This document shows, in pieces, positions 2,696 to 47,663 of a DNA stretch of 59,849 nucleotides. Under the pieces are notes generated by a model. That model was not told the DNA's origin. It made no database searches and was given only the letters and a program-made list of their open reading frames with translations. The position numbers and the translations under genes were made by a program. The first letter of the stretch is position 1, and every line of letters begins with the position of its first letter. Origin of the DNA: a virus. Taxonomy: Duplodnaviria > Caudoviricetes. The stretch spans positions 1 through 59,849 of the IMG/VR virus record IMGVR_UViG_3300031996_000006; one strand, written 5' to 3'.

Positions 2696-4238
2696 AGACG
2701 CTTTTGACCCGCTTAATTACGCAATTGCTCAGCTAGAGGAACAAGTCAATCCGCTTGACCCTGTGGATTGGGCCAAAAGAAAGGCTGGTATCCACCTGTG
2801 GTCGAAGCAGCGGGACATCATCCATTCAATTCAGGCAAACAAGAAGACTGCCGTGCAATCAGGGCATGGTATTGGAAAGTCTCTGACTGCATCGGTTGCC
2901 GCGTCGTGGTGGGTCGACACCCATCCACCCGAGGACACACTAGTTGTATCCACAGCTCCCTCGGTCAAGCAGGTTCACGCGATTCTGTGGGAAGAGATTC
3001 GTAAGATCCATGGGCGCGCGAAGCTTCCTGGGGAAGTGCAGATCTCGGATAACTGGATTATCGGTCGTCGTCTCGTTGGTTTTGGGCGGAAGCCACAAGA
3101 CCACGACCGTGACGCTTTCCAGGGTCTCCACCGTAAATACGTTCTGGTCATCCTGGACGAGGCTTGCGGCATCCCCGAATGGCTTTTCCTGGCGGCTTCC
3201 GCGATCACGACTGGTGATCACTGCCGAATCCTCGCAATTGGAAACCCCACCGACCCGTCGTCCTACTTTCGAAAGGTTTGTCGGCCGGGTAGTGGTTGGA
3301 ACACAATCAAAATATCGGTCCTGGATAATCCACGTTTCACGGGAGAGTACCTACCACCCGAAGTAATTGAGGACCTGACCGGACCGAACTGGGTTGAGGA
3401 AAGTAAGGTCGAACTTGGAGAAGGAAGTCCGCTTTGGAAGGCGAAGGTTGAGGGAGAATTCCCCAACCTCGACGAGTTCTCGGTTATTCCTGTCGGTTGG
3501 ATTGAGGAAGCACAGAATCGTTGGCTCGCCTGGGAAGAAGAGACGGGTGGTCGTCCTGATCCTGAGAGTCGACAAATTATTGGAGCTGACATTGCGCGTT
3601 TCGGTAGTGATAAAACCGCCTTCGCTTACCGATATGGAGATGTAATCACCAAGGTAGAGACCATGCCCAAGCGAGATACAATGGGCACTGCTCAAATGCT
3701 GGCACGTAAATTGCGTGTCGGCTTAGGTGATATGGCTGTGGTCGATACCAACGGTGTCGGTGCTGGTACGTATGACGCCTTGCGTAAGACACAGCATTAC
3801 GCAATGGGTGTGAACGTTGGTAACCGAACCTCCCTGGTCGACTCCACGGGTCAGATTGAATTCTACAACCTCCGTGCAGCTCTCATGTGGCGCTTGCGAG
3901 AGCGATTGGACCCTGCACGAAATCCAACCTTGTGTCTTCCTCCGGATGACCAACTCACTGTGGATCTGTCGGCCCCACGCTGGAAGACAGTGCCCGGTGG
4001 AAAGGTTGTTATCGAATCTAAAGATGACATGCGAAAGCGGATCGGACGATCCCCCGACAAGGGAGACGCTGTAGCCCTTGCAATGTGGGCATCCGCAGGC
4101 GGTGTATTGCTCGACACAGACACCGCAGCTTTCGAATGGGATACCAAGGCTCGTGATGATGGTTCCGGGGAACTTGCTATAGACTGGGGCGAGCTTGTAG
4201 AGGACCCATTTAGCTTTGCCGATTTCGAAATCAGTTAG
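2685..4238 (+). CDS. terL: Terminase large subunit
   Basis: Walker A SGHGIGKS, Walker B VILDEACG, GNP motif, nuclease GADIARFGSDKT and SPDKGDA. Confidence 0.95.
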   Translation: MPRKDAFDPLNYAIAQLEEQVNPLDPVDWAKRKAGIHLWSKQRDIIHSIQANKKTAVQSGHGIGKSLTASVAASWWVDTHPPEDTLVVSTAPSVKQVHAILWEEIRKIHGRAKLPGEVQISDNWIIGRRLVGFGRKPQDHDRDAFQGLHRKYVLVILDEACGIPEWLFLAASAITTGDHCRILAIGNPTDPSSYFRKVCRPGSGWNTIKISVLDNPRFTGEYLPPEVIEDLTGPNWVEESKVELGEGSPLWKAKVEGEFPNLDEFSVIPVGWIEEAQNRWLAWEEETGGRPDPESRQIIGADIARFGSDKTAFAYRYGDVITKVETMPKRDTMGTAQMLARKLRVGLGDMAVVDTNGVGAGTYDALRKTQHYAMGVNVGNRTSLVDSTGQIEFYNLRAALMWRLRERLDPARNPTLCLPPDDQLTVDLSAPRWKTVPGGKVVIESKDDMRKRIGRSPDKGDAVALAMWASAGGVLLDTDTAAFEWDTKARDDGSGELAIDWGELVEDPFSFADFEIS

Positions 4239-4248
4239 GTCGTAAGTA

Positions 4249-5976
4249 ATGACGATCTATAACAACTATCAGGCATCCGGATTGAATTCCGCAGAGACGC
4301 CTGGTAATTCGACCACGCCTGCTCCCGTCACAGAGCAGATTTATGATGAGGACAATCCACCGGTAGGTGAGCTTGGTAGCTCATTCTCCTATGATTCTCA
4401 GTTCGGTGGATGGCTTGACGGTAATGTTTACGCGCCTGCGGAGCCGTCGCTAGCCGACTACCACCACATGCTCGATACCGATGGCACTGCCAAGAGTATT
4501 GAGTTGATGCTTGCGTATCCTATTATGGCTGCGCCTTGGTCTATTGAACCTGCTAAGGGTGATACAGGTCAGGCGGAGTTTATTTACGATGCGTTGACAG
4601 CTCTTCCTCATCAGGGCGGTCCTATGACCACCATTGAGGAACTTATTAAGCAGATGTGTAGTGCATTTGTTAATAAGCGAGCATATTTTGAGAAGGTTTT
4701 CAAGGTAAACGACGACGGTAAGATCGTCTATCACAAGCTTGCGTTCCGACCTCCGGAGACGTGCGAGCTTGCCTTGGATGCCCGGACCGCTGAACCTCGT
4801 GGTTTCCGACAGATGCCACTCATTTATCCGTACACGGATTCGAATTCGATCCCGACGATGAATGGTGATCTTCGACCGAACGTGAATGCCCCGGCATCTA
4901 TGTGGGTAGAGGTTCCGTCGGAGCGGGCATTCGTCTATGTTCATGGTTCGTGGCGTGATCCTCTATTGGGCGTCTCCGAAATGAAGGTGCCTTACTATAT
5001 TTACCTTACCAAGCGGAAGATCCGTTGGCTCTGGTATCAGTTCCTTGACCAGACTGCTTTGCCTAAGACTATCGTCCGGAATCAGGATGAGATTCAGGCA
5101 CGGAATGACGCACGGAAGGTGGCGAGCCTTCGTGGCAAATCGGTGTTGGCTCTGGGAGCCGAAACCACAGTAGACCCGTACGAATCTTCGGGTAAGGGTG
5201 CCCAGTATTTCCAGGACGCGCTTCACTTCTGCGATATGGAAATGCTTAACGCTGGGTTGATGGGCTTCCTTCAGCTCACGACGGAGCAGTCCTCGGGTCA
5301 CGGTTCCTATGCGCTTGCTACCACCATGGAGCAAATGTATAACCGCTCCCGGGTGATGATCGCTCTGGACATGGCACGCCAGATCACGAACGAAGTCATC
5401 GGCCCTCTGATTGCCTACAACTTCGGTGTGAAGGCGCCTGTTCCGCGTTTCAAGTTCGGGCCACTCTCGAAGGAAAACGACACCGCTGCGCTTGCTGCGT
5501 TCCAGCAGATCATGGCCGCAACGAATGCCACGGTTCCTGTTGAGTTCTACAACGAACTGATCGGTCGCGTGGCCGGAATCCTGAACCTCGATGCAGGCAA
5601 GGTTGCCAAGGACATCGAGGTCAACGGCTCTCCGCAGCAGACTTCGCTTCAGCAGCTGCAAATTGCGGTCGAAAACTCTCAGCAGATGCTTGAGAATGCT
5701 AAGAGCGCTAACGCGGCGACTCCAGGGATGGGGCCTACCGGTAAGCCTCCCTCGCCTTCCTCCCCGCAGGCGCCAAAGGGGGCCCCAACGCAGGGGCTTC
5801 CTCCGCGTCCTAGTGGCCAGCCGACTTCCGTTGCGGCTCGGGCACAGCAGCAGGGCAAGCCCGGAAACGTTGAGAGCGGGCGACCCGCGCAACCGACTAC
5901 GGCTGGCACTCGGCCTTTCGGAACCAACTCCGTAGCGAACCCATCGCGCGAGAAGAATAAGAAGTACGGTAAGTGA
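4249..5976 (+). CDS. Portal protein (Mu gp29/DUF935-like) with P/Q-rich C-terminal tail
   Basis: Position after terL, size, GSYALA and LIAYNFG..P.F.F motifs. Confidence 0.85.
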   Translation: MTIYNNYQASGLNSAETPGNSTTPAPVTEQIYDEDNPPVGELGSSFSYDSQFGGWLDGNVYAPAEPSLADYHHMLDTDGTAKSIELMLAYPIMAAPWSIEPAKGDTGQAEFIYDALTALPHQGGPMTTIEELIKQMCSAFVNKRAYFEKVFKVNDDGKIVYHKLAFRPPETCELALDARTAEPRGFRQMPLIYPYTDSNSIPTMNGDLRPNVNAPASMWVEVPSERAFVYVHGSWRDPLLGVSEMKVPYYIYLTKRKIRWLWYQFLDQTALPKTIVRNQDEIQARNDARKVASLRGKSVLALGAETTVDPYESSGKGAQYFQDALHFCDMEMLNAGLMGFLQLTTEQSSGHGSYALATTMEQMYNRSRVMIALDMARQITNEVIGPLIAYNFGVKAPVPRFKFGPLSKENDTAALAAFQQIMAATNATVPVEFYNELIGRVAGILNLDAGKVAKDIEVNGSPQQTSLQQLQIAVENSQQMLENAKSANAATPGMGPTGKPPSPSSPQAPKGAPTQGLPPRPSGQPTSVAARAQQQGKPGNVESGRPAQPTTAGTRPFGTNSVANPSREKNKKYGK

Positions 5977-6175: not shown

Positions 6176-6881
6176 GCTTAACCGGATTCCGCATTTTGAT
6201 GAGCGATCTCGTGAATACGGAATCCGACAGCTCATCGGTCCAACCCCTCGGTACAAGAGGATTTGGGCTACGCGTCCAGATGCTTTGGACCAGGGCCAGG
6301 AAGGTGCGTGTACTGGTTTTGCGTCGGCCGGTTTTCTGGCGGCTGCCCCGCAGAAGTGGAAGACCGATGCGGAAATGGCAGAGCGAATCTTCAAGGGAGC
6401 AATCCAGATTGACAAGCTTGAAGGACGCGACTTCGGAGGAGAAGGCGCGACCGTTCTGGCGGCGATGAAGGCATGTCAGGAGTTCAGTTACTTTGACAGC
6501 TACGCATGGTGCTTTGGTATTGACGACGTCTGCGACACCATTGTTCGTCGCGGGCCAGTCGTGCTCGGTATCGACTGGTACAACGATATGGAATCACCAG
6601 ACGAACGGGGTCTCCTTCACGTCGGTGGAGCCGTCGCAGGAGGCCACTGCATTTTGGCCAATGGATACTGGCCAGGCCATCCGGATTTCGGAGACGTAGT
6701 CGTCCTAACGAATTCGTGGGGCAATGACTGGGGTTTGCGTGGTCGTTGTTATATTCGGTTTGACGATCTTAGGGATCTGCTTCGAAACAACGGTGAAGCG
6801 GTTCATCCTCACAGTGTCCGACAGACTTGGTCATCCGTTCCGACGGGTGGCGAAGGTGCATCCCATACGTTGGATGCATAA
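6162..6881 (+). CDS. Papain-like (C1) cysteine peptidase
   Basis: DQGQEGACTGF (Q and catalytic C), GGHCILANGY (H), NSWG (N). Confidence 0.9.
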   Translation: MPIPKLNRIPHFDERSREYGIRQLIGPTPRYKRIWATRPDALDQGQEGACTGFASAGFLAAAPQKWKTDAEMAERIFKGAIQIDKLEGRDFGGEGATVLAAMKACQEFSYFDSYAWCFGIDDVCDTIVRRGPVVLGIDWYNDMESPDERGLLHVGGAVAGGHCILANGYWPGHPDFGDVVVLTNSWGNDWGLRGRCYIRFDDLRDLLRNNGEAVHPHSVRQTWSSVPTGGEGASHTLDA

Positions 6882-6928
6882 CAATTTCACACTAGATTTA
6901 ATCATAAAAGAGCACTGGAGGAGGTGGA

Positions 6929-13717: not shown

Positions 13718-16700
13718 GTGGCTTTTGATGCAGGATCAATCGAAGGTACTCTGGACCTCGATCTCAATCCGTTTACGGTAGCTCTGGATGAAGCTACTGC
13801 ACGGGCAGATGAGTTCGACGGTAAGACTTTCACCGCAAAGCTTGACCTTGACTCGCGTGGCGTCTCCGCTGAGTTGGACAAGCTGAAGGCACAGCTTGAC
13901 GAATTCGCACGTAAGGCGGCTACCGCTACTGCGAAGGTCAATGTAGAACGTAAAGAGTTTGATACTCTTCTTTTCGACCTGAGAATCTTCTCGGTGCGAT
14001 CCTACTCTACCAAGGTCAAGGTGGATTCTCTTGCGGCTAAGGCTGAACTTGACCTTCTGAGGTTAAAGCTAGACGAGACAGCTCGAACCCGTATCGCTAC
14101 TATCTTCGTTAGTAGCCCGGGTAGTGGTGAAGCCGAAGGCTCATTGAGTCGCATCCAAATGATAGCTGGTGCGATCATCATTTTGGCGCCTATGATATCC
14201 GCTGCGTTGATCGGCATCATAGGTGCCGTCGGAATGCTCGCTTCTGCATTCGTCGTCGCCGGTGTGGGTGTCGGCGCGTTCGCCATTGCGGCTGTCCCTG
14301 CCTTTGAAGAGATTTCCAAGGCAGTTAAGAAGGGTCAAGAGGGGATTGACGCCCTGCCTCCGTCTCTGCGTGGGGCGGCTCAGGCATTCAAAGGGCTGAA
14401 GGATGAAGTAAAGACGCTTCAGGAGATCGGCTCTGGCGTCGTCGGCCAGACAATGGCTGCCGGTTTCAACCTGCTGACGTCCATCCTGAAGACGCTTGAA
14501 CCTCTGATGAAGCCGGTATCTGCCGCGCTTACTCAGATGTTCGGCATTTTTCAGGAATTCTTTGGTTCCTCCATATGGGGGAACTTCATTTCCATGGTCG
14601 GGCAGCAGATTGGTCCGGTCCTTAGGGACTTTGCCACCATCGGCGTTTCTCTAATCAAGACTGTTATCGGAATCACTGATGCTTTTATGAAGCTCGGTGG
14701 TCCGATCATGGATCAGCTTGTCAAGATGTTCCAGGATCTTGCTACCTGGGCAAGTAACCTAGGAACTGATCCTAACTTTAAACGGTTCATTGATCTGGCA
14801 GTTCAATCTTTGCCACGCGTCATTGAGTTCGTAACTCAGCTTGTCACGTTCATTATGCATCTTGCTATGGGACTTGCCCCTCTTGGTAACTTGATGATGG
14901 ACGTGGTTAACTGGTGCCTGAAGCTAGTTAACTCTATTCCGCCCGATTGGATGGGCGCTATTGTACTTGGTATTACGGCTATCGTGGTTGCTATATCCGG
15001 CTTCGGCGGGCCAATCATGCTCGTAGTTGTAACCATCATGGCGGTCGTCGCTGCATTCCAGGCAGCCTATGATAAAATCGGTTGGTTCCATAAAGCAGTA
15101 GATGCTGTAGTTGATTTCTTTACACACTTCGGCGATCGTATGCGTGAGTTCGGTGACTACATTGTTACCGGATGGAACGATATGATCAATCAGATCTCGA
15201 CTGCGTGGACAGGTCTGTGGACTTCCGTTGGCGATTTCTTTAGCAATATCTGGCAGTCTATCGTTTCGTTCTTCGAAGATCGAACCAATGCGTTTAAGCA
15301 AACTTGGGTAGATGCCTGGAATTCTGTAGTTAGTTTCTTCCAGGATCGTTGGAATGCAGCACGTGATTCGGCGATTGCAATTTGGCAGGCAATCTCTGAT
15401 TTCTTCACGTCAATCTGGAATGGCATTTCCTCTGTAGCTACTACAGTTTGGAATGCCATCACTGATTACTTCCAGCGTTTGTTCCAGGCGCATCATGAGC
15501 TGATCACTCAGGTCTGGACTGCAATCTCGAATTTCTTCTCTACAATCTGGAACGCGATTTCGAGCACTGCTCAAACTGTCTGGAATGCGATCTCTAGTTT
15601 CTTTGCGGATCGTTGGGCTGCCTTCTCTACAAGCTGGACGAATCTCTGGACGACGATCTCGAATTTCTTCCAGACTATTTGGAATGCGATTTCGTCTACA
15701 GCTCAGAGTATTTGGAATGCTATTGCTGCATTCTTTACTGAGCGTTGGAATGTTTTCAGCGCTAACTGGTCGAATTTGTGGAATACGGTTTCACAATTCT
15801 TCACAACGATCTGGAATAACATTTCCTCGACTGCACAGTCGATCTGGAATGCTATTGCTTCATTCTTCACGAATGCCTGGAACGTACTTTCCAACGCCTG
15901 GAATACTGTCTGGAATGCCATCTCGACGTTCTTTACGAATATCTGGAATGGTATTAAGGGGCAAGCTACTACGCTTTGGAATGCAATCTCTAGCTTCTTC
16001 ACAGGAGCCTGGGATGCGATTTCCACTAAGTGGAATCAAATTTGGCAGGGAATCTCTGATTTCTTCGGTCGAGTCTGGGAAGGAATCAAGACTACTGCTT
16101 CTAGTGTTTGGGATGGAATCACGGGAGCAGTTCGAACTGGAGTCAACAACGTCATCGGAGTTATCAATACTCTGAAGAATGGCCTTAACGTTGTACTGAA
16201 GTTCTTGCTCATTCCAGTGATTCCAGACATTCCCGGTTTTGCTACCGGTGGTGTGCTTCCTGACGAAGTACAGATGCTTGCCGGTGGTGGATCTGTCGGA
16301 GCTGGCTTTAAGACGAATGGACCTAGGGCCATCGTCGGAGAAGGCAACCCTCGCTATCCAGAGTACGTCATTCCTACAGATCCGCAACACCGATCGAACG
16401 CGGTTGCTCTACACCAGGAAGCCGGTACTCAGTTGCTGGCTGGAGGTGGCGTAGTCGGTGGTGGAGGCTACAACCCATACGGCGGTGGTGGTGGATCATC
16501 GTCGGTTGCGGCGCAGACTCAGACGGCACAGAAACAGGGTCTCTCGACTGACCCACTCGGTGACGTTACTGGGGCTATCAGTTCAGCTATGAAAGCCTTT
16601 GCTGCTGGTCCTATCGGCGAAATTGGTAAGGCAGTTGCCACCAAAATCGGTGATGCCGTTAAGAAGAAGATTACTGATGCCCTTGCGGCGGCGGCGGCGG

Positions 16701-24256: not shown

Positions 24257-24651
24257 TGAATGCCTCTGAGTTTGTCTCGCTATCGATTTCCGTTGTCGGT
24301 TTTCTAGGTGTTTTAGTAGCTAACCGGTTTACATCGCGGACGGCTAAGTCTGCACAGGAAATCACCGCCGCAGCAGAGTTGGCAAAAGTAGCTCAGTCAC
24401 GTGACGACGGTTGGCGGTCAGACAATGTTGAGCTGCGCAAAGCACAGTCTGAATATAGGGAGCGCATAGATCATCTAAGTGAGCGTGTAGACTCGCTGGA
24501 AGATCAAAACCGTATGTTCTTACGTGAAAAGAATGACATTATCATTTGGGCACGTAAGATTGTAGATTTACTTAAAAATAGTGGAATTCCGTATCCGCCC
24601 GCACCTCCAGGGGTTTTAGATACGGACCCGGGTATGCGGAGCCAGCCATGA
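24256..24651 (+). CDS. N-terminally anchored coiled-coil membrane protein (lysis region)
   Basis: TM helix, coiled coil, PPAPP tail. Confidence 0.75.
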   Translation: MNASEFVSLSISVVGFLGVLVANRFTSRTAKSAQEITAAAELAKVAQSRDDGWRSDNVELRKAQSEYRERIDHLSERVDSLEDQNRMFLREKNDIIIWARKIVDLLKNSGIPYPPAPPGVLDTDPGMRSQP

Positions 24652-25043
24652 AGACTTACGCAAAAGCCTTCGTGCACCTAGTTGGGGCAATCCTGGTAGC
24701 AGTTCTCCCCCTGCTCACCACGAACAGTCCAATGGGTGCGACTGAATGGATGAATGTTGCACTTGTAGGCATCGGTGCGGCTGTCGTCTGGAATACGACG
24801 AACTATCCAGGTTGGCCCTATGGCAAGGTAATTGGCTCTGCCCTCACGACTGCACTTACCGCAGTCAATTCTCTGGTTGAGCAACATGGTCTGACACAAG
24901 CAGCCATTATGCAGATTATCTTGGCTGGTGTCGTGACGATTGCTGTTGGCTTTATTCCTAACGACACTTCCCAGCCTGTCGACCAGCGGTCGAATATGAA
25001 TCCTGAAGGTCGGCACGCGGCCCCAGATCCAAACCCAGAATAG
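24648..25043 (+). CDS. Holin
   Basis: YAKAFV..VGAIL, EW.NVAL, internally duplicated 2-TM unit ending IPN. Confidence 0.75.
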   Translation: MKTYAKAFVHLVGAILVAVLPLLTTNSPMGATEWMNVALVGIGAAVVWNTTNYPGWPYGKVIGSALTTALTAVNSLVEQHGLTQAAIMQIILAGVVTIAVGFIPNDTSQPVDQRSNMNPEGRHAAPDPNPE

Positions 25044-25047
25044 ATAC

Positions 25048-25076
25048 TTGACGTCTACACAGACGTGTGCTATACT
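25048..25076 (+). promoter_or_regulatory. Housekeeping-sigma promoter TTGACG-N17-TATACT with overlapping palindrome ACGTCT-ACAC-AGACGT
   Basis: Near-consensus hexamers upstream of the replication genes. Confidence 0.8.
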
Positions 25077-25085
25077 GTTTAACAG

Positions 25086-25133
25086 ACGCCGGTAGTCGGG
25101 TGAAGTTACACACCCTCGGCTACCGGCGTTTTT
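25086..25133 (+). terminator. Intrinsic terminator/attenuator
   Basis: ACGCCGGTAG / CTACCGGCGT stem followed by TTTT. Confidence 0.75.
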
Positions 25134-25184
25134 ATGTGCAAGACAAAGGCAAATGCCAACACCACACATAGAATCGAGTCGAGA

Positions 25185-26363
25185 ATGACTCAGTCTCCGG
25201 ACACCCCCGAAGTACACCCGACAGCGTCAGCAGAGCATCGCGAGACACACCAGATCCACACTTCCGAGATCCGTTCATTCAACGGGTGTCGTCGGCGGTG
25301 GGACTGGGCCTATCGTCAGGGCTTCGTCCTAGATCAGGCGCCCAAGCCTCTAGAGCTTGGCATTGCATTCCATATTGGTATGGAGAAGTTCTACGACCCT
25401 GAGGCGTGGGACTCCACCAGTAAGGAGGAGAAGGCGAGTCGTGCGGTCGTCGCCTTCACCGAGGAGTGCGAGCGCCAGCGGGCAGCCTTCCTGAAGGCAA
25501 CTAATCAGGAACGCATCCTCGTTGCCGAAGGTGATGATTACACCGAGAGAATCGATCTCGGGATTGGCATGATTGAGCACTATGCCAACTACATTCACCC
25601 GGTAGAGGATGACTGGTTCCGACCCGTCATGACTGAGGTAGCTTTTCAGGTACCTCTTACTGATCCTAGGACGGGTGAGCCTCTTCGTTGTTTCACGCCG
25701 GGAACACATGAAGGTGGCTGTGGACAGTTCCATCCTGTAGGTGCTCTAGTCACCTACGATGGCCGTGTGGACATACTGATCGAAGACATCGCCAACGGTG
25801 GTTACTTCGTTTGGGATCACAAATCTGCTGCGCAGGTTCAGAAGAGTGACCACCTGATTCAGATGGACCCTCAGGTAGTCGGCTACAGTTGGGCTCTGCG
25901 TACTGTGCTGGAGTTGGACATTCGGGGATTCATCTACGCGGAGTACCGCAAGGACTACCCGAAGGCGCCTGCACTCCTGAAGAATACTATCAAGGGTAGG
26001 CACTTCAGTACGGACAAGCAGCAGGGTACGAACTTGGCAGTCTTCCTAGAGCATGTGAAGAAGTATGACTTTGACGCATACCAGGATGGATGCTACGATG
26101 AGTTCATCGCATGGCTCAAGTCGAAGGACGGGCCGGTTTTCCACCGGCGGTTCCCAATCCTGAAGACACCGTACGAGCTTGACCAGATGGGGTATAATCT
26201 TAGTATGGAGGCTTCAGAGATGGTCCGACCGTCTCTGCCGATCTACCCCGCACCCGGCCGATTCTCGTGTTCAGGTTGTGGTTACTACACGCCATGCAAC
26301 GGTAAGAACCGAGGCGAAGATTATGAGTACACACTGAACTCGCTGTATCGAAAGGTGAAGTGA
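25185..26363 (+). CDS. PD-(D/E)XK (RecB/Cas4-like) exonuclease
   Basis: F.GCRRRW, G.AFH, GRVD, WDHKSA, Q...Y, C-terminal CSGC..C. Confidence 0.9.
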   Translation: MTQSPDTPEVHPTASAEHRETHQIHTSEIRSFNGCRRRWDWAYRQGFVLDQAPKPLELGIAFHIGMEKFYDPEAWDSTSKEEKASRAVVAFTEECERQRAAFLKATNQERILVAEGDDYTERIDLGIGMIEHYANYIHPVEDDWFRPVMTEVAFQVPLTDPRTGEPLRCFTPGTHEGGCGQFHPVGALVTYDGRVDILIEDIANGGYFVWDHKSAAQVQKSDHLIQMDPQVVGYSWALRTVLELDIRGFIYAEYRKDYPKAPALLKNTIKGRHFSTDKQQGTNLAVFLEHVKKYDFDAYQDGCYDEFIAWLKSKDGPVFHRRFPILKTPYELDQMGYNLSMEASEMVRPSLPIYPAPGRFSCSGCGYYTPCNGKNRGEDYEYTLNSLYRKVK

Positions 26364-41014: not shown

Positions 41015-41086
41015 TCGGGATGATGGGGTTCGAACCCATGACTTCTAGTTCCCAAAACTAGCACTCTTCCGCTGAGCTACATCCCG
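41015..41086 (-). tRNA. tRNA-Pro(TGG)
   Basis: CGGGATG acceptor stem, anticodon arm CTAGT-TTTGGGA-ACTAG, GGTTCGAACCC T-arm. Confidence 0.92.
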
Positions 41087-41461
41087 TTTGTTTTTGTTGT
41101 ATTTCTTTCCTGCTTCAGACTTAGCCTTTTTACAGGAGTCACATCTACAACCGTACTTACTATATCCCCATGGAGTTCCATGCTGAATCTCTTCCCACTT
41201 ATTGTGACCTCCACCATACTCTTTATTAATTTTGGTTTTTTCAATGTGATGTAACTTGCAAAGAAGCTGACACTTATCCAGTTCAACTACCAAACGATTC
41301 CATGAGATAGCCCAATTTTGCATGATTCCAAATGACTTAGTCTTCGGATCGATGTGATCGAACTGGAGGGCTTCTGTACTACTACAATTAACACACTTGC
41401 CACCAAGGTAGGCGAGCATCTTAGCTTTTCGAATCTGATACTCACTCATGGTTGAGGTCAT
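41045..41461 (-). CDS. HNH endonuclease
   Basis: GGKCVNC...LQFDHIDP...KCQLLCKLHH plus C-terminal HGT..GY...CRC..C; 3' end runs into tRNA-Pro. Confidence 0.92.
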   Translation of the reverse strand: MTSTMSEYQIRKAKMLAYLGGKCVNCSSTEALQFDHIDPKTKSFGIMQNWAISWNRLVVELDKCQLLCKLHHIEKTKINKEYGGGHNKWEEIQHGTPWGYSKYGCRCDSCKKAKSEAGKKYNKNKRDVAQRKSASFGN

Positions 41462-41467
41462 GCCCAA

Positions 41468-41774: not shown

Positions 41775-41907
41775 TTGTACTCCTAATTGGGAGAGTTGGG
41801 CACCGCTACCAGTCACCTTACTACAGGTTTGAGGTTGTCGCTATGCGAACCAACTCTCAAACAGGTAGTTCCCCGGACTGACACCTTTATTGCAATGCCC
41901 AACTCAG

Positions 41908-41980
41908 CGACCCAAACGGGACTTGAACCCGCGATCTCCACCTTGACAGGGTGGCGCTTTACCAACTAAGCTATTGGGCC
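41908..41980 (-). tRNA. tRNA-Asp(GTC)
   Basis: GGCCCAA acceptor stem, CCACC-CTGTCAA-GGTGG anticodon arm, GGTTCAAGTCC T-arm. Confidence 0.93.
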
Positions 41981-41982
41981 TG

Positions 41983-42148
41983 GAATTAGATCACGGGTTG
42001 AGCAGGAACGTTCATAACACAGGCGAAAGGAACCCGGGATGGAATCCTGCGAACGAACCTTAACCGTGGTGCTTCATGCGCACGAGATTGGCCGAAATCA
42101 ATCTCTCCTTACCCGGGACGGAGTTTGACTCCATCCGTGATCTAATTC
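41983..42148 (-). ncRNA. Candidate structured ncRNA B (166 nt)
   Basis: Perfect 14-bp closing helix plus internal hairpins; no ORF; abuts tRNA-Asp. Confidence 0.6.
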
Positions 42149-42167
42149 TTTTTACCTTCTACCACCT

Positions 42168-42379
42168 GGCGTGCCACCAGCTCCCCGGGATCAACCCGAA
42201 GTTTAATGCCTCTCCTTTTCGATGAAACAGGCGAGAGGCTTTCCTGTCTGCCACCCTATTCAGCGAACCACATGTCCGTGTGGTGCGAATAGAGCTCATC
42301 TGAATAAAGTTTTATGTGTCCCGTGTCGGACAGAGGACGGGACCAGCCTCTGCGCTAACTCCCTAGAACCCCGCACGCC
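42168..42379 (-). ncRNA. Candidate structured ncRNA A with H-type pseudoknot
   Basis: GGCGTGC/GCACGCC closing helix, pseudoknot at 42318-42352, further hairpins; no ORF. Confidence 0.55.
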
Positions 42380-42451
42380 CAATGTCTAGACGTATTCTCG
42401 CTCTAGTTTGTCAGTCCTATTGTCAGTCGGGGGGACCTTCTGACATGTTCA

Positions 42452-42481
42452 AGTATAGCAGGCATTTCACGGACTCGTCAA
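42452..42481 (-). promoter_or_regulatory. Promoter TTGACG-N18-TATACT pointing into the ncRNA/tRNA cluster
   Basis: Same hexamers as the 25048 promoter; no downstream ORF for more than 600 bp. Confidence 0.75.
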
Positions 42482-45388: not shown

Positions 45389-45592
45389 AGCTCTATTCTA
45401 CACGAAGAATAGATTTTGCCCACCCCTGACCGGCCATGCGGGTCTCAGCGCCTCTCTAACAAGATCAACCTGCCTAACCCGCCCAAGGAGACCACCCACC
45501 CCGTCTAAGGCGCTCTACGGAGCTCTCAGGCACCAGAAAGACCCCCTCGGTGGTCAGTGGGCCGCGCAGAGCCCCACCCCGGGCCGATTTGG
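45360..45592 (-). repeat. Right copy of the 233-bp inverted repeat
   Basis: Reverse complement of 1-233. Confidence 0.97.
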
Positions 45593-45792
45593 GGGTCGAA
45601 GTTCGTTAAAAAGTCAGGAACTGTGTAAAAACACACCAGGAGTGCAACTAAGGAAAGGTACTTTGACCTGGGAAAACACTACGAAGTTAACGTAGTTGAC
45701 GAAGTCTCGTGACGTGATGTGTTATCGACGAGGTTGACTTTTTTGTCAAGCCCTGCATGCCAACTTTCTCACGCTTGGACCGATCTAAGCCG

Positions 45793-45808
45793 TGTGATCT
45801 GCGTCACA
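45793..45808. promoter_or_regulatory. CRP/GlxR-type binding site TGTGA-N6-TCACA
   Basis: Perfect consensus TGTGAtctgcgTCACA in the divergent intergenic region. Confidence 0.65.
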
Positions 45809-46276
45809 GACCTACCCGACCGCCCAGTCACCCGGATGATCTTGACAAATGAACGAGGGAGGAGGATCCTACTACCTCTTTAGAAGATCAAGTAACTTTT
45901 ACTAAAGTTTTACTTGACTTCTTCTCTTACTTAAGTCATAACGCATGATGCGCGCAGCGATTCCGCTAACTCCGCTAACTTCGTGCGCATCTTCGCAGGT
46001 CAGCCCCGGTTTTCTCAGTTGCACCGGGAGTGCTACTTCGTGCTACTCCGCCACCCCACATCGCTGTGACCTGCGGAAACACACCGTGGCACACATTGAA
46101 GATCATCGGCAACTGTCCCCATCGGACACTGACCGTCCACACCGGACCTGAAGGAAAACCCCAGGTCAGCACCAACGTAAGCCAAATTAACAAGGATCCC
46201 CCTCCCGACTTCCCTGCTTCTACCTAATCCTCCTATGGATTCCTGCTCTGTTGACCCTGCCTGATATAATGGGAAT

Positions 46277-46522
46277 ATGCCCATCAGAACAGTCCGTGTG
46301 ACTCAACGCGTATCAGAGGCAAGTGGTCGACGTAGGGTTTGGATGCGTAGAATTGAGAAGATGTTCGCTGAGAAGGATTACAAGCAAGCTATCTATAAGC
46401 TTCAAGATTGGATGCTTCTCGAAGTGAAGGATATGCCTGAAGAGGAACTTGAACAGGCTTGTCTGAAGTTTGCACAGTGTGTTTCTGAGATTAACGCTTT
46501 TAACGCCAATGAAATCGAGTAA
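46277..46522 (+). CDS. Hypothetical protein
   Basis: TATAAT-N6-ATG leaderless start. Confidence 0.75.
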   Translation: MPIRTVRVTQRVSEASGRRRVWMRRIEKMFAEKDYKQAIYKLQDWMLLEVKDMPEEELEQACLKFAQCVSEINAFNANEIE

Positions 46523-46754
46523 GAAGAGTATAGAAAACCGTCGCAACTACTGGATGGGTAAATGCTACGGTAAGTTTGTCTCGAAAGAAACTCGTGTGAA
46601 GCTTTTAATCCAGTGGCTCTGGAAAGAAGCTGATTTCGCTAACGACGGACTGAAGGCAACCCCTCTAGTCCCTGAAATCAAGGAACTGCTCTTAAAAGAG
46701 CTTCCGCCTGAATCCCGACGTTTACAAACGTTACGAGAGAATGGTATACTGTGA
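46509..46754 (+). CDS. Hypothetical protein
   Basis: Operon ORF; RR..WM motif similar to the upstream gene. Confidence 0.6.
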   Translation: MKSSKKSIENRRNYWMGKCYGKFVSKETRVKLLIQWLWKEADFANDGLKATPLVPEIKELLLKELPPESRRLQTLRENGIL

Positions 46755-47002
46755 TTACTATGGAAATGGCTCTGGTTGAGATCAGTACCGGACGGTGGTC
46801 AGGTGCTGTCTTCCTAATTGAGATTGACCCAGAGACCGACGAGCCAATCTCGCCTTTTGACATCTCTACTGACGGTCGGGTTGTCTACAACGAAGATCAC
46901 ACCAGAATTATCGGTGAGCGATACGCTAGTGAAATCCACCTTAACTCTTTGAACGACCCTCGTGACGACCCGCATTCTTCTCTGAATAATGAAGGAAATT
47001 AA
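46751..47002 (+). CDS. Acidic hypothetical protein
   Basis: GTGA coupling. Confidence 0.6.
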   Translation: MITMEMALVEISTGRWSGAVFLIEIDPETDEPISPFDISTDGRVVYNEDHTRIIGERYASEIHLNSLNDPRDDPHSSLNNEGN

Positions 47003-47257
47003 ATGGCCCGCTGTGGATGGTGTGGTACTTCCCAACTTCAGAACTCATCCACTAAAGGACTAGAATCTCATAGCCCCTCCTGGTCTAACCGTCCATGTGA
47101 GGGGTTTTCTAGTTGGATGACCCGACCTATTGCTATCGCTAGAACGGAAGGCACATCGAGGACTACCTCTTTGCCGTCCCATGTCCGACTGGAGAATGAC
47201 GTTATTCGGGTTAAATTCCCGAAAACCCTGCCCCCGCCGTCATCCCGCTCAGCTTAG
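47003..47257 (+). CDS. Hypothetical protein (CxxC..H..C)
   Basis: AAGGA RBS; followed by a hairpin at about 47264-47308. Confidence 0.6.
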   Translation: MARCGWCGTSQLQNSSTKGLESHSPSWSNRPCEGFSSWMTRPIAIARTEGTSRTTSLPSHVRLENDVIRVKFPKTLPPPSSRSA

Positions 47258-47372
47258 AAATGAGAAAACCCCCGACTGAAACTAAATCGCTTCAGGCGGG
47301 GGATTTCTCGACCTCACAGATACCTGCTCCCAATCAGGCTCTGTCCCCCTAGCATACCAACACCCCGAGGCC

Positions 47373-47663
47373 ATGTCACCGCGACCTTCCAGGAATAAGC
47401 CTCCGTCTACCCGGTCACTGAGGAGACACCTTCCCACACACTCTGAAATCAGGGTATGCGGACAAATAGTCTCCAATCAGTACAACCTAATCTGTCTCCT
47501 TCCTCCAACTGTTCCACACGAAACCCATGCCGCCATTGGGGCTACTCCCTCCGATGCGTACCTCTTGACCAGAGATCCCGACGGCAATGTGTGGATGCAA
47601 ATTCACAAGCCGTCTGGAGAGTTAAAATGGGAAATCGTAGAAACCCTTTCACCGAACGAGTAA
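47373..47663 (+). CDS. Hypothetical protein
   Basis: ORF upstream of the FtsK-like gene. Confidence 0.55.
   Translation: MSPRPSRNKPPSTRSLRRHLPTHSEIRVCGQIVSNQYNLICLLPPTVPHETHAAIGATPSDAYLLTRDPDGNVWMQIHKPSGELKWEIVETLSPNE

Follow-up and report, generated by a model that had tools for sequence, protein, structure and literature searches.

Our analysis of the window, a stretch of 59,849 nt that covers positions 1 to 59,849 of IMG/VR record IMGVR_UViG_3300031996_000006 (Duplodnaviria; Caudoviricetes), points to a new family of structured phage RNA linked to tRNA islands. With moderate confidence, we read a locus of ~466 nt on the minus strand as such an RNA, forming the 5′ part of a tRNA operon. 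The locus extends over ~466–470 nt after its promoter, is protein-free, and has its 3′ end 2 nt before a tRNA-Asp gene. An earlier note on this DNA had proposed a novel, promoter-driven, ORF-free structured RNA, and the proposal is borne out by seven covarying pairs, the lack of a conserved ORF and the absence of an Rfam or ARAGORN match in the RNA. Covariation, sequence conservation and comparison with shuffles all lend support to the predicted fold; the underlying alignment comprises three sequences, two of them near-identical: the window and the only two homologues retrieved, L002 and L003, both IMG/VR contigs. From 5′ to 3′, the predicted elements of the RNA and its transcription unit are:

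42452..42481, minus strand: promoter with −35 TTGACG (42481–42476), 18-nt spacer and extended −10 TGC-TATACT (42457–42452); 10/12 consensus matches
42421..42445, minus strand: 5′ terminal hairpin UGUCAG/CUGACA with loop CCCCCC (CCCCC in L002 and L003); helix 1 of the pairing model
42355..42417, minus strand: branched hairpin around CUAGA/UCUAG (42406–42400 with 42369–42363), a helix on which the per-sequence folds agree
42318..42352, minus strand: pseudoknot A, with S1 CAGAGG/CCUCUG, L1 CUG, S2 GUCCCGU/ACGGGAC, L2 of 0 nt and L3 UCCGAC
42293..42317, minus strand: A-rich linker after pseudoknot A; soil-run variants have extra sequence at 42311–42315
42256..42292, minus strand: hairpin whose internal loop is conserved, with CUAUUC/GAAUAG as outer and CCACA/UGUGG as inner helix (helices 4 and 5)
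42208..42248, minus strand: pseudoknot B, with S1 (G)ACAGG/CCUGU(U), L1 AAA, S2 GCCUCUC/GAGAGGC, L2 G and L3 of 12 nt ending AAAAG
42166..42201, minus strand: two local hairpins, CUUCGGG/CCCGGGG and CUGGUG-GCA-CGCCAG, from per-sequence folds
42149..42165, minus strand: linker rich in purines and A (..GUAAAAA) that connects the 5′ domain to the 3′ domain; AAAAAG invariant in all three sequences
41983..42148, minus strand: 3′ domain of ~168 nt, closed by a 14-bp helix (previously called RNA B)
41907..41980, minus strand: tRNA-Asp (GTC), 72.8 bits, 2 nt after the 3′ domain
41816–41619, minus strand: 65-aa membrane ORF downstream of tRNA-Asp, in the same unit
41467–41045, minus strand: HNH endonuclease gene, absent from L002 and L003
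41086–41014, minus strand: tRNA-Pro, distal in the same unit
40924–40906, minus strand: terminator-like hairpin with U-run, end of the unit

The leftward TTGACG-N18-TATACT promoter described earlier is present on the minus strand (42481..42452). It has a TG before the −10 box and 10/12 matches, and transcription is predicted from this sequence to start at about 42446–42444. Its −10 block TGCTATACT (promoter TTGACG-18-TGCTATACT, 42481–42452) is identical in all three homologues, and in soil-run variants changes are confined to spacer positions 42471 and 42474; the 11 soil metagenome runs covered consist of DNA contigs only. A local promoter scan alone is not significant (4 sites vs. 2.4 ± 1.8 in shuffles). 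Sites reaching 10/12 number only 7 on both strands of the window, and a second site with the same TTGACG ... TGCTATACT hexamers lies at 25048–25076.

On the minus strand, no promoter-like or terminator-like site was found from 42452 to tRNA-Asp, and no terminator-like site before 40924. L002 and L003 carry a tRNA-Asn instead, 3 nt after the 3′ domain, so that a tRNA lies within 2–3 nt of the RNA 3′ end in all three loci (Asp in the window, Asn in the two homologues). This real tRNA abutting the RNA, which makes the RNA the leader of a tRNA operon, had been overlooked in the earlier note. The suggestion that the pseudoknot-bearing RNA and RNA B may be one molecule is supported at the level of a single transcription unit: no internal promoter- or terminator-like site separates them, and both are conserved together in L002 and L003. 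This supports RNA B being the more conserved 3′ domain within the transcription unit of the 5′ pseudoknot domain. The neighbouring proteins gave no hint of an RNA-related role.

The stretch was rightly described as non-coding, as no ORF of at least 20 aa on the RNA strand is common to the three homologues, and none is conserved among them on either strand. The gaps of the three-sequence alignment within the RNA include runs of 1, 2, 10 and 14 columns; in contrast, an upstream 119-aa ORF is 82–83% identical in protein among the homologues.

Exact-pattern scans of viral contigs returned no further homologue beyond L002 and L003, and a search of the viral contigs with the neighbouring 119-aa ORF again recovered only these two contigs. 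One candidate, L026, was discarded as a chance 17-mer in apparent coding sequence with no tRNA nearby. The RNA pattern scan gave 0 matches in metagenome contigs and 0 in genome contigs, while helicase alignment yielded 12 loci in the former (the best, 54% identical, being the same contig as L005) and 0 confirmed of 51 candidates in the latter. L005 itself has a tRNA-flanked stretch of 712 nt. Among GenBank phages, blastn with the RNA plus tRNA matched through the tRNA part alone (150 records, none covering at least 80%), megablast with 20 kb gave no match, and tblastn with the helicase gave nothing above ~28% identity among the matches listed. An nhmmer search with the RNA found no match in L004–L007. 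A fragment of the ~466-nt RNA may already be contained in the IMG/VR catalogue described in PMC10690425, which reports 8,495 candidate structured RNAs of 29–151 nt.

Our pairing model comprises 78 pairs, with 97% of the 230 cells paired over the three sequences. Seven pairs are changed on both sides, compared to 2.4 ± 1.3 in shuffles, none of 500 of which reach 7 (a control, not a probability); slid controls gave 0–1. Moreover, G-U pairs occur at 5 modelled pairs; on the opposite strand these would turn into A-C mismatches, indicating that the fold belongs to the minus-strand transcript. In the covariation check proposed earlier, the 7 double-change pairs fall in the 5′ hairpin, the hairpin 42256..42292 and stem 1 of pseudoknot B; pseudoknot A is near-invariant.

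The 5′ hairpin TGTCAG/CTGACA was found as claimed at 42445–42421, with 5 outer pairs invariant and one inner pair changed on both sides; helix 1 as a whole has 6 invariant pairs, 1 double change and 1 pair formed in only one of the three sequences. A pairing of its C-loop with a downstream G-run was rejected: it shows one apparent compensatory change, but overlaps a local hairpin. The branched hairpin 42355..42417 includes a conserved GGCGUGC (42379–42373) and, in the window, a 14-nt insertion relative to L002 and L003. Because its CUAGA/UCUAG helix is out of column register in alignment A2, it was omitted from the covariation count, and the hairpins of 42166..42201, whose counterparts in L002 and L003 differ in sequence from those of the window, were left out since they are not in register either. 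The GGCGTGC/GCACGCC closing helix proposed previously is not supported: its 7/7 pairs exist in the window only, with no partner in L002 or L003, and its 3′ strand GCACGCC sits in the second local hairpin of 42166..42201.

The pseudoknot reported in the earlier note exists exactly as described and is conserved, but it is one of two rather than the only one, and covariation neither proves nor refutes it. All 7 pairs of S2 in this pseudoknot A are invariant across the three sequences. Of the S1 pairs, 4 are likewise invariant, one changes from A-U to G-U, and the outermost is disrupted in two of three sequences; being near-invariant, the element is conserved without its pairing being proven by covariation. 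A pseudoknot with at least 12 Watson-Crick pairs arose in only 4 of 300 dinucleotide shuffles. Two compact H-type pseudoknots, as predicted for the RNA, arose in none of 300. In the soil contigs X5, X6 and X10, no change at 42318–42352 is among those listed. The linker that follows carries an insertion in DNA contigs (X5 record 20; X6 records 27 and 28; X10 record 4), the one in X5 being ~105 nt at 42311–42315 with these 5 nt flanking it on both sides.

Two long hairpins had been placed downstream of the linker. The first is real (42292–42256): its 13 pairs include 3 with double changes, and 100% of cells are paired; in the X6 variant, 5 pairs would remain by hand reading of one contig at depth 3.9. 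The second (GCCTCTC/GAGAGGC) is instead stem 2 of pseudoknot B. Stem 1 of this pseudoknot (helix 6) has 6 pairs, 3 of them with double changes and 1 with a one-sided change, and the 7 pairs of stem 2 (helix 7) are all invariant. The X5 variant lacks one base in each S1 strand (42248 and 42225). Alternatively, AGAGGCU of pseudoknot A could pair over a long range with AGCCUCU of pseudoknot B, as it does in the nested minimum-free-energy fold. Taken alone, the 5′ domain has only a modest folding advantage over shuffles (z = −1.99; 8 of 200 shuffles as good).

The 3′ domain folds more stably (z = −4.92), and none of 200 shuffles folds as well. It is closed by 14 invariant pairs (helix 8) between GAAUUAGAUCACGG (42148–42135) and CCGUGAUCUAAUUC (41996–41983). 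The interior is predicted to form a mini-hairpin (42131–42121), a variable hairpin (42105–42084) in whose place L002 and L003 carry a different one, a small hairpin (42083–42069) and a long, irregular one whose loop is C-rich (42060–42004). Overall, the RNA matches L002 at the nucleotide level about as closely as the neighbouring genes do, and only 42061–42002 stands out, with 57 of 60 positions identical. The core of the domain is wholly invariant, so its pairings are unproven by covariation. A T-loop in GGUUCGUUC was considered and dropped owing to a misfit of the position-58 base.

A cis-acting leader is an unlikely explanation of these features; it would govern how the downstream tRNAs and genes are processed, stabilised or read through, e.g., as a 5′ stabiliser or processing platform, and be functionless after cleavage. 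No terminator separates the RNA from the tRNAs to which it is indeed joined, it has a hairpin at its extreme 5′ end, and a tRNA follows it in all three loci. However, a length of 466 nt, two pseudoknots and a 168-nt domain with z = −4.92 far exceed the needs of a stabiliser, and the downstream tRNA differs (Asp vs. Asn) while the 3′ domain is nearly unchanged. Moreover, the tRNA genes in the examined region of ScoobyDoobyDoo are closely packed, with no similar gap.

Substrates of bacterial RNase P include minihelices that carry a CCA end, and the enzyme also matures the C4 RNA of phages P1 and P7. The 3′ domain could be a separate molecule excised by RNase P on both sides, a 12-bp acceptor/T-stem minihelix with U-CCA that mimics a tRNA acceptor end and acts, e.g., as a decoy for defence toxins attacking tRNA 3′ ends; we consider such a division into two molecules improbable. 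Its appeal lies in the end of the domain, where 12 contiguous pairs (42146–42135 with 41996–41985) are followed by U41984, C41983-C41982-A41981 and then the tRNA, the arrangement of 12 pairs and U-CCA directly before the tRNA being invariant in the three loci and the helix being preceded by an A-rich single strand. Against this, the helix can also grow to 14 bp by pairing the two bases before CCA, which leaves only CA unpaired, L002 and L003 have CCAA before the tRNA, and the domain has no T-loop and is not detected by ARAGORN or by the tRNA and tmRNA models; chance alone would put a CCA here about 1 in 64 times, and it was spotted post hoc. A joint reading, in which the locus is a third, structurally unrelated class of "ornate" tRNA-island RNA, with the near-invariant 3′ domain as an acceptor-end mimic freed by RNase P on both sides and acting during infection as an RNA-only assembly or a decoy, is likewise unlikely; such a decoy would be aimed at ribosome- or tRNA 3′-end-recognising proteins, either host factors or defence toxins.

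Membership in a known family was assessed with a scan of all 4227 Rfam families and with covariance-model searches for six single families (E ≤ 10 per record). In the full scan, a check already called for in the earlier note, no family, ROOL included, matched inside the RNA of the window, L002 or L003. ARAGORN finds only tRNA-Pro and tRNA-Asp in the window, none inside the RNA, in agreement with the earlier statement that a tRNA-like domain is missing; it reports no tmRNA in the window or in L002–L007. The tmRNA resemblance noted before is not sustained, since the tmRNA model RF00023 (gathering score 47 bits) has 0 matches in G000 and yields only tRNA-arm-sized fragments outside the RNA, of 10–11 bits, at tRNA positions of G001, while scoring 82.7 bits in the positive control, prophiT49-2. 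Of the hallmarks of tmRNA, several H-type pseudoknots are represented by the two present here, with covariation in stem 1 of pseudoknot B. A tag-peptide frame after the first pseudoknot was not found: the homologues share no ORF there, and 1- and 2-nt gaps fall inside the candidate frame.

The GOLLD model RF02032 (gathering score 150 bits) matched none of four records at E ≤ 10, compared to 198.6 bits in its prophiT49-2 control. The ROOL model RF03087 (gathering score 99.1 bits) had no match in G000, a weak test because the model was also silent in 14 of 14 control genomes. For RNase P RNA (RF00010; gathering score 100 bits; control 11 of 14 genomes) the only match, of 9.3 bits, lies at 14494–14542, outside the RNA. 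The group I intron model RF00028 matched none of three records, with the flanking tRNA intact, and neither did the 6C model RF01066. Two further candidates were set aside: an RNase P-like P4 around two CCCGGG motifs, for which the model search was negative, and type III antitoxin-like repeats, as no repeats are present. A very divergent or degenerate member of the tmRNA, RNase P RNA, GOLLD, ROOL, group I intron or 6C families is highly improbable, even though the tandem pseudoknots recall tmRNA, the C-rich loops 6C, and the tRNA-island context and conserved 3′ domain GOLLD: neither the full scan nor the six single-family searches gave anything in the RNA, the GOLLD and tmRNA controls worked, ARAGORN reported no tmRNA, and no tag ORF is conserved. 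Finally, that there is no RNA gene here, and that the stretch is instead several small ORFs or an element acting at the DNA level (an origin or clustered binding sites, for instance), is hardly credible, since the ORFs of 46 and 55 aa present in the window are both unconserved in L002 and L003, a consensus promoter points into the stretch, and pairs are kept in a strand-specific manner through double changes and G-U pairs.

For a structured RNA at the head of a tRNA operon, the reading that we prefer, the sequence suggests that host RNA polymerase would start at the extended −10 promoter and read through the RNA, tRNA-Asp, the small membrane ORF, the HNH endonuclease gene and tRNA-Pro to the terminator at ~40906. 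As in established tRNA processing, RNase P would cut where the abutting tRNA begins and free the RNA, whose 3′ end would then lie 2–3 nt past the 14-bp closing helix. The released molecule is predicted to fold into a moderately conserved 5′ domain, made up of the C-loop terminal hairpin, two compact H-type pseudoknots and several hairpins, followed by the more conserved 168-nt 3′ domain. Judging from its context, it may be a stably folded, trans-acting RNA in the niche of GOLLD and ROOL, neither a cis riboswitch nor a tmRNA, with a putative role as a scaffold or binding partner tied to tRNA or translation during infection. The roles put forward in the earlier note, a decoy for ribosomes or defence proteins or a ribozyme, are speculative.

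Large multi-pseudoknot RNAs of bacteria and phages are rare, and the locus indicates that uncultured soil phages still hold sizeable RNA genes missed by Rfam. With its compact ~466 nt, it could serve as a model for studying an RNA-based activity linked to tRNAs. The context that best constrains its function appears to be its position as leader of a tRNA operon, the same niche as that of GOLLD in a mycobacterial prophage.

Among known RNAs, the 6C RNA of Actinobacteria shares hairpin loops with C-runs, which in 6C are thought to pair with G-rich targets and here read CCCCCC in the 5′ hairpin and AUCCC/ACCCC in the 3′ domain; however, 6C RNA is ~75 nt long, whereas the C-loops are small parts of our 466-nt RNA. 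Resemblance to tmRNA lies in the row of H-type pseudoknots, the A-rich stretch after the first of them and the location in tRNA regions of actinophages. In contrast to tmRNA, the RNA has no tRNA-like domain, model match or conserved tag frame, and its 5′ and 3′ ends are not paired together. A true tmRNA is present in the prophiT49-2 array. Like our RNA, ROOL is large and contains pseudoknots; it is encoded by phages and prophages, often near tRNAs (PMC5737381, PMC12286853), but it averages 581 nt, and the hosts differ by context. Published accounts portray both GOLLD and ROOL as nanocages made of RNA only, with their function unsolved.

The closest parallel in genomic setting is GOLLD, which is likewise phage-encoded in a tRNA island, ends a few nt before a tRNA and has a neighbouring HNH endonuclease gene from the same family. 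The Mycobacterium abscessus prophage prophiT49-2 has the order GOLLD (the control match above), tRNA-Phe, the HNH homologue and tRNA-Met. Among phages, homologues of the HNH endonuclease of the window occur in 224 records, with Mycobacterium phages accounting for 154. Co-localisation of GOLLD and an HNH endonuclease with tRNA clusters has been reported for mycobacteria (PMC9569102). In GOLLD, the 3′ region is described as conserved, the 5′ region as less so and the linker as variable (PMC12286853); three sequences plus DNA contigs hint at a comparable tendency here. GOLLD, a homo-oligomeric nanocage with stems P1–P27, exceeds 800 nt, and the RNA, at ~466 nt, is about half its size and is predicted to be built around two compact H-type pseudoknots; none of the conserved GOLLD motifs that were compared was seen in it, nor was any sequence or model similarity. 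From the shared genomic spot, the RNA may be a further example of the GOLLD/ROOL kind. A smaller, sequence-unrelated RNA in the GOLLD slot, before a tRNA and beside the same HNH family, suggests that this slot may itself select for an RNA-based activity tied to phage tRNAs.

The earlier note proposed that a dedicated promoter drives a leftward, ORF-free RNA containing an H-type pseudoknot. This outline was correct; a second pseudoknot and an adjoining tRNA had been missed. The locus carries a conserved, strand-specific folded element of about 466 nt with its own consensus promoter, without a conserved ORF and abutting a tRNA, and we regard it as a real, apparently new structured phage RNA.

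Features of the locus (L002 and L003 are two near-identical IMG/VR contigs with homologues of the RNA)
ends at 42467: 119-aa ORF, a real gene (protein 82-83% identical in L002 and L003)
42481..42452, minus: promoter TTGACG-N18-TATACT with TG before the -10 box (promoter scan)
~42446-41981, minus: new RNA
42352-42318, minus: pseudoknot A, CAGAGG-CUG-GUCCCGU-CCUCUG-UCCGAC-ACGGGAC
42248-42208, minus: pseudoknot B, ACAGG-AAA-GCCUCUC-G-CCUGU-(12 nt)-GAGAGGC
42148-41983, minus: 3' domain ("RNA B"), closed by an invariant 14-bp helix
41980-41907, minus: tRNA-Asp (ARAGORN), 2 nt after the new RNA
41045-41467, minus: HNH endonuclease (phrog_4234)
41086-41014, minus: tRNA-Pro (ARAGORN)
40924-40906, minus: terminator-like site

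The record of 59,849 b has an estimated completeness of 98% and a GC content of 0.49-0.57, and no close relative was found among 50,697 GenBank phage records. Pfam matches indicate a tailed phage (Mu-like portal, capsid protein, tape-measure-like protein with an SLT domain, NlpC/P60 lysin) and include a second lysin with an Rpf-type "Transglycosylas" domain and LysM, an SNF2 helicase, RuvB and DUF932; the Rpf-type domain presumably points to an actinobacterial host. Soil metagenome runs contain DNA near-identical to the window. The SNF2 helicase as query retrieved six IMG/VR loci, and nhmmer detected the new RNA in the two with a helicase of 85% identity (L002 2718-3271 and L003 2900-3452, both E about 1e-76), with no match in the other four. 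Closer variants are found in contigs of the soil runs X5, X6 and X10 (DNA only). In the collections searched the family is very small, with three contigs plus the soil-run variants; all attempts to enlarge it further were without success.

By itself the promoter scan is weak, with 4 sites in 2.4 kb vs 2.4 +/- 1.8 in shuffles. The call is strengthened by the rarity of sites reaching 10/12 matches (only 7 in the whole window), by a TGCTATACT block that is the same in 3/3 homologues (the -35 box is TTGCAC in L002 and L003), and by the soil variants, whose differences are confined to the spacer. One other 10/12 site (25048) carries an identical TTGACG ... TGCTATACT. This second promoter (25048-25140, plus strand; TTGACG-17-TGCTATACT) sits in the structural module between ORFs 24648-25043 and 25134-26363, and about 15 nt past its -10 box a GC-rich inverted repeat starts (GACGCCGGTAG...CTACCGGCGT), followed by TTTTT; this could represent an attenuator or a small, ~55-nt RNA. 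Several promoter-like sequences, e.g., TTTACA-18-TATACT with TG at 46721, also lie in the divergent region between leftward and rightward gene blocks at 45400-47450 (~2 kb without an ORF of at least 110 aa), which is probably an early regulatory region.

No ORF on either strand is common to the homologues across ~42446-41981, in line with the ORF-free reading, and the alignment gaps there include runs of 1, 2, 10 and 14 columns. Since no minus-strand terminator-like site was found ahead of 40924-40906, the unit comprises the promoter, the RNA, tRNA-Asp, a 65-aa membrane ORF, the HNH endonuclease, tRNA-Pro and the terminator. In L002 and L003, which are without the HNH gene, a tRNA-Asn follows the RNA after 3 nt, and then tRNA-Asp and tRNA-Pro. 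Between tRNA-Asp and the membrane ORF (41820-41880, minus strand), a long imperfect inverted repeat without a U-run, GUUUGAGAGUUG ... CAACCUCAAAC, flanked by CUAC/GUAG, was read by eye.

Our structure model, built on the MAFFT alignment A2 from helices in column register, has 78 pairs in 11 helices, and standard pairs are formed in 97% of 230 cells (3 sequences). Seven pairs are changed on both sides, compared to 2.4 +/- 1.3 in 500 shuffles (0/500 reach 7), and when the 3' partners are slid by 1-3 columns, pairing is 34-42% and 0-1 pairs of this kind remain. As the comparison is between three related sequences, the controls serve as an indication and not as probabilities. Of the double changes, one falls in the inner 5' hairpin, three in the hairpin 42292-42256 and three in stem 1 of pseudoknot B. 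At 42201-42166 (two hairpins) and 42105-42084 (the variable hairpin within the 3' domain), L002 and L003 have hairpins of other sequence in the same places; MAFFT sets these out of register, and they were left out of the pair count. G-U is used at five modelled pairs, which would become A-C on the plus strand, and the fold therefore belongs to the minus-strand transcript. According to hand-read substitution tables, the X6 variant has a rewritten 42283-42268 hairpin with five pairs retained and the X5 variant lacks one base per strand in stem 1 of pseudoknot B; each is a single contig (depth 3.9-7) and supportive only.

A script for compact H-type pseudoknots (Watson-Crick only, at least 12 pairs, short loops) identifies A and B, and no others, in the new RNA; among dinucleotide shuffles, one occurs in 4/300 and two in 0/300. 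Pseudoknot A, present as first read, is strongly conserved rather than proven by covariation: it is invariant across the three sequences save one A-U to G-U change and the outermost pair, and none of the soil-contig substitution rows listed falls inside it. An alternative pairing, between AGAGGCU in pseudoknot A and AGCCUCU in pseudoknot B, is the one taken by the nested minimum-free-energy fold; with none of the four strands varying, the data do not discriminate between it and the pseudoknots. In pseudoknot B, the AAA of loop 1 is invariant and the end of loop 3 is A-rich, features typical of triplex-stabilised pseudoknots. In the linker after pseudoknot A (42311-42315, minus strand), the contigs of X5, X6 and X10 (three runs, three studies) all break; the X5 contig has ~105 extra nt here with the 5 nt AUAAA on both sides. 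The extra sequence is either a domain that only some variants carry or a small inserted element.

The proposed closing helix was rejected. GGCGUGC (42379-42373) pairs 7/7 with GCACGCC (42174-42168) in the window only; no such partner was found in that region of L002 and L003, where the sole 7/7 partner, GUACGCU, lies within the equivalent of the 42292-42256 hairpin, and the window's GCACGCC is also part of a local hairpin, CUGGUG-GCA-CGCCAG. The 3' domain folds far better than shuffles (z = -4.92; 0/200 as good), the 5' domain and whole RNA giving z = -1.99 and -2.46, figures that exclude the pseudoknots. Positions 42061-42002 are identical to L002 at 57/60, compared to 40-55 in most neighbouring 60-nt windows. 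The few substitutions lie in predicted loops or make a pair better (e.g., U-U to G-U at 42044); the internal pairing of the 3' domain is otherwise predicted only.

An Rfam scan with all 4227 families returned only tRNAs in the window at gathering score, and at E <= 10 no match inside the new RNA in the window or in the L002 and L003 records (L008, L009). Because E-values in an all-family scan scale with the number of families, single families were also run (E <= 10 per record). RNase P (RF00010) gave only a 9-bit match at 14494, GOLLD (RF02032) matched in 0/4 records, and group I intron (RF00028), 6C (RF01066) and ROOL (RF03087, whose control was also silent) gave no match. The likeness to tmRNA seen earlier found no support, RF00023 yielding only tRNA-arm-sized fragments in the record G001. 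The models work on actinophage DNA, as the Mycobacterium phage prophiT49-2 scores 198.6 bits for GOLLD and 82.7 bits for tmRNA.

From established tRNA biology, the RNA would be co-transcribed with the tRNAs and released when RNase P cuts at the 5' end of the tRNA. More speculatively, the hairpin with which the transcript starts may shield it from 5'-end-dependent decay, and the two C-run loops and the SD-like/anti-SD-like pseudoknot strands could make contact with G-rich or ribosomal sequences. The helix that closes the 3' domain may be viewed as a tRNA acceptor minihelix of 12 bp plus U-CCA; RNase P might then make a further cut, at 42147/42146, that frees this domain. The genomic context suggests that the RNA may act in trans as an RNA of the GOLLD/ROOL type, with a link to tRNAs or translation.

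Published accounts describe GOLLD and ROOL as RNAs of phages and prophages that often occur near tRNA islands and whose function is unknown (PMC12286853 and its preprint; PMC5737381). Within GOLLD, conservation is universal in the 3' region and lower in the 5' region, and the linker varies and sometimes contains tRNAs (PMC12286853 and its preprint); in mycobacteria, tRNA clusters co-localise with GOLLD and an HNH endonuclease (PMC9569102). With the window's HNH as query, tblastn gives matches in 224 phage records, of which 154 are Mycobacterium phages. Homologues occupy tRNA arrays of these phages (e.g., locus L027, 6977-7357), and the gene is absent from L002 and L003; it is thus probably a mobile homing-type gene travelling with tRNA islands. 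The prophiT49-2 homologue, at 44.8% identity, is part of a large tRNA array in which tRNA-Gln is followed by ~700 unannotated nt and then by GOLLD (6449-6892), whose linker contains a tRNA; tRNA-Phe comes 9 nt after GOLLD and is followed by HNH and tRNA-Met. In the window, the order is new RNA, tRNA-Asp 2 nt later, small ORF, HNH and tRNA-Pro. In the more distant relative L005 (helicase 54% identical), a 712-nt ORF-poor stretch lies between a tRNA at 3681-3748 and tRNA-Glu at 4461-4535; its fold scores z = -3.82 (0/20 shuffles as good), and neither nhmmer with the window's RNA nor the GOLLD model gives a match there. The stretch may represent a further large RNA at the same genomic position. 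The new RNA has no motif in common with the GOLLD alignment, but tends in the same direction as GOLLD in its better conserved 3' domain and in the ~105-nt insertion in the linker after pseudoknot A in soil variants. The GOLLD-like genomic slot is the most informative lead on the new RNA.
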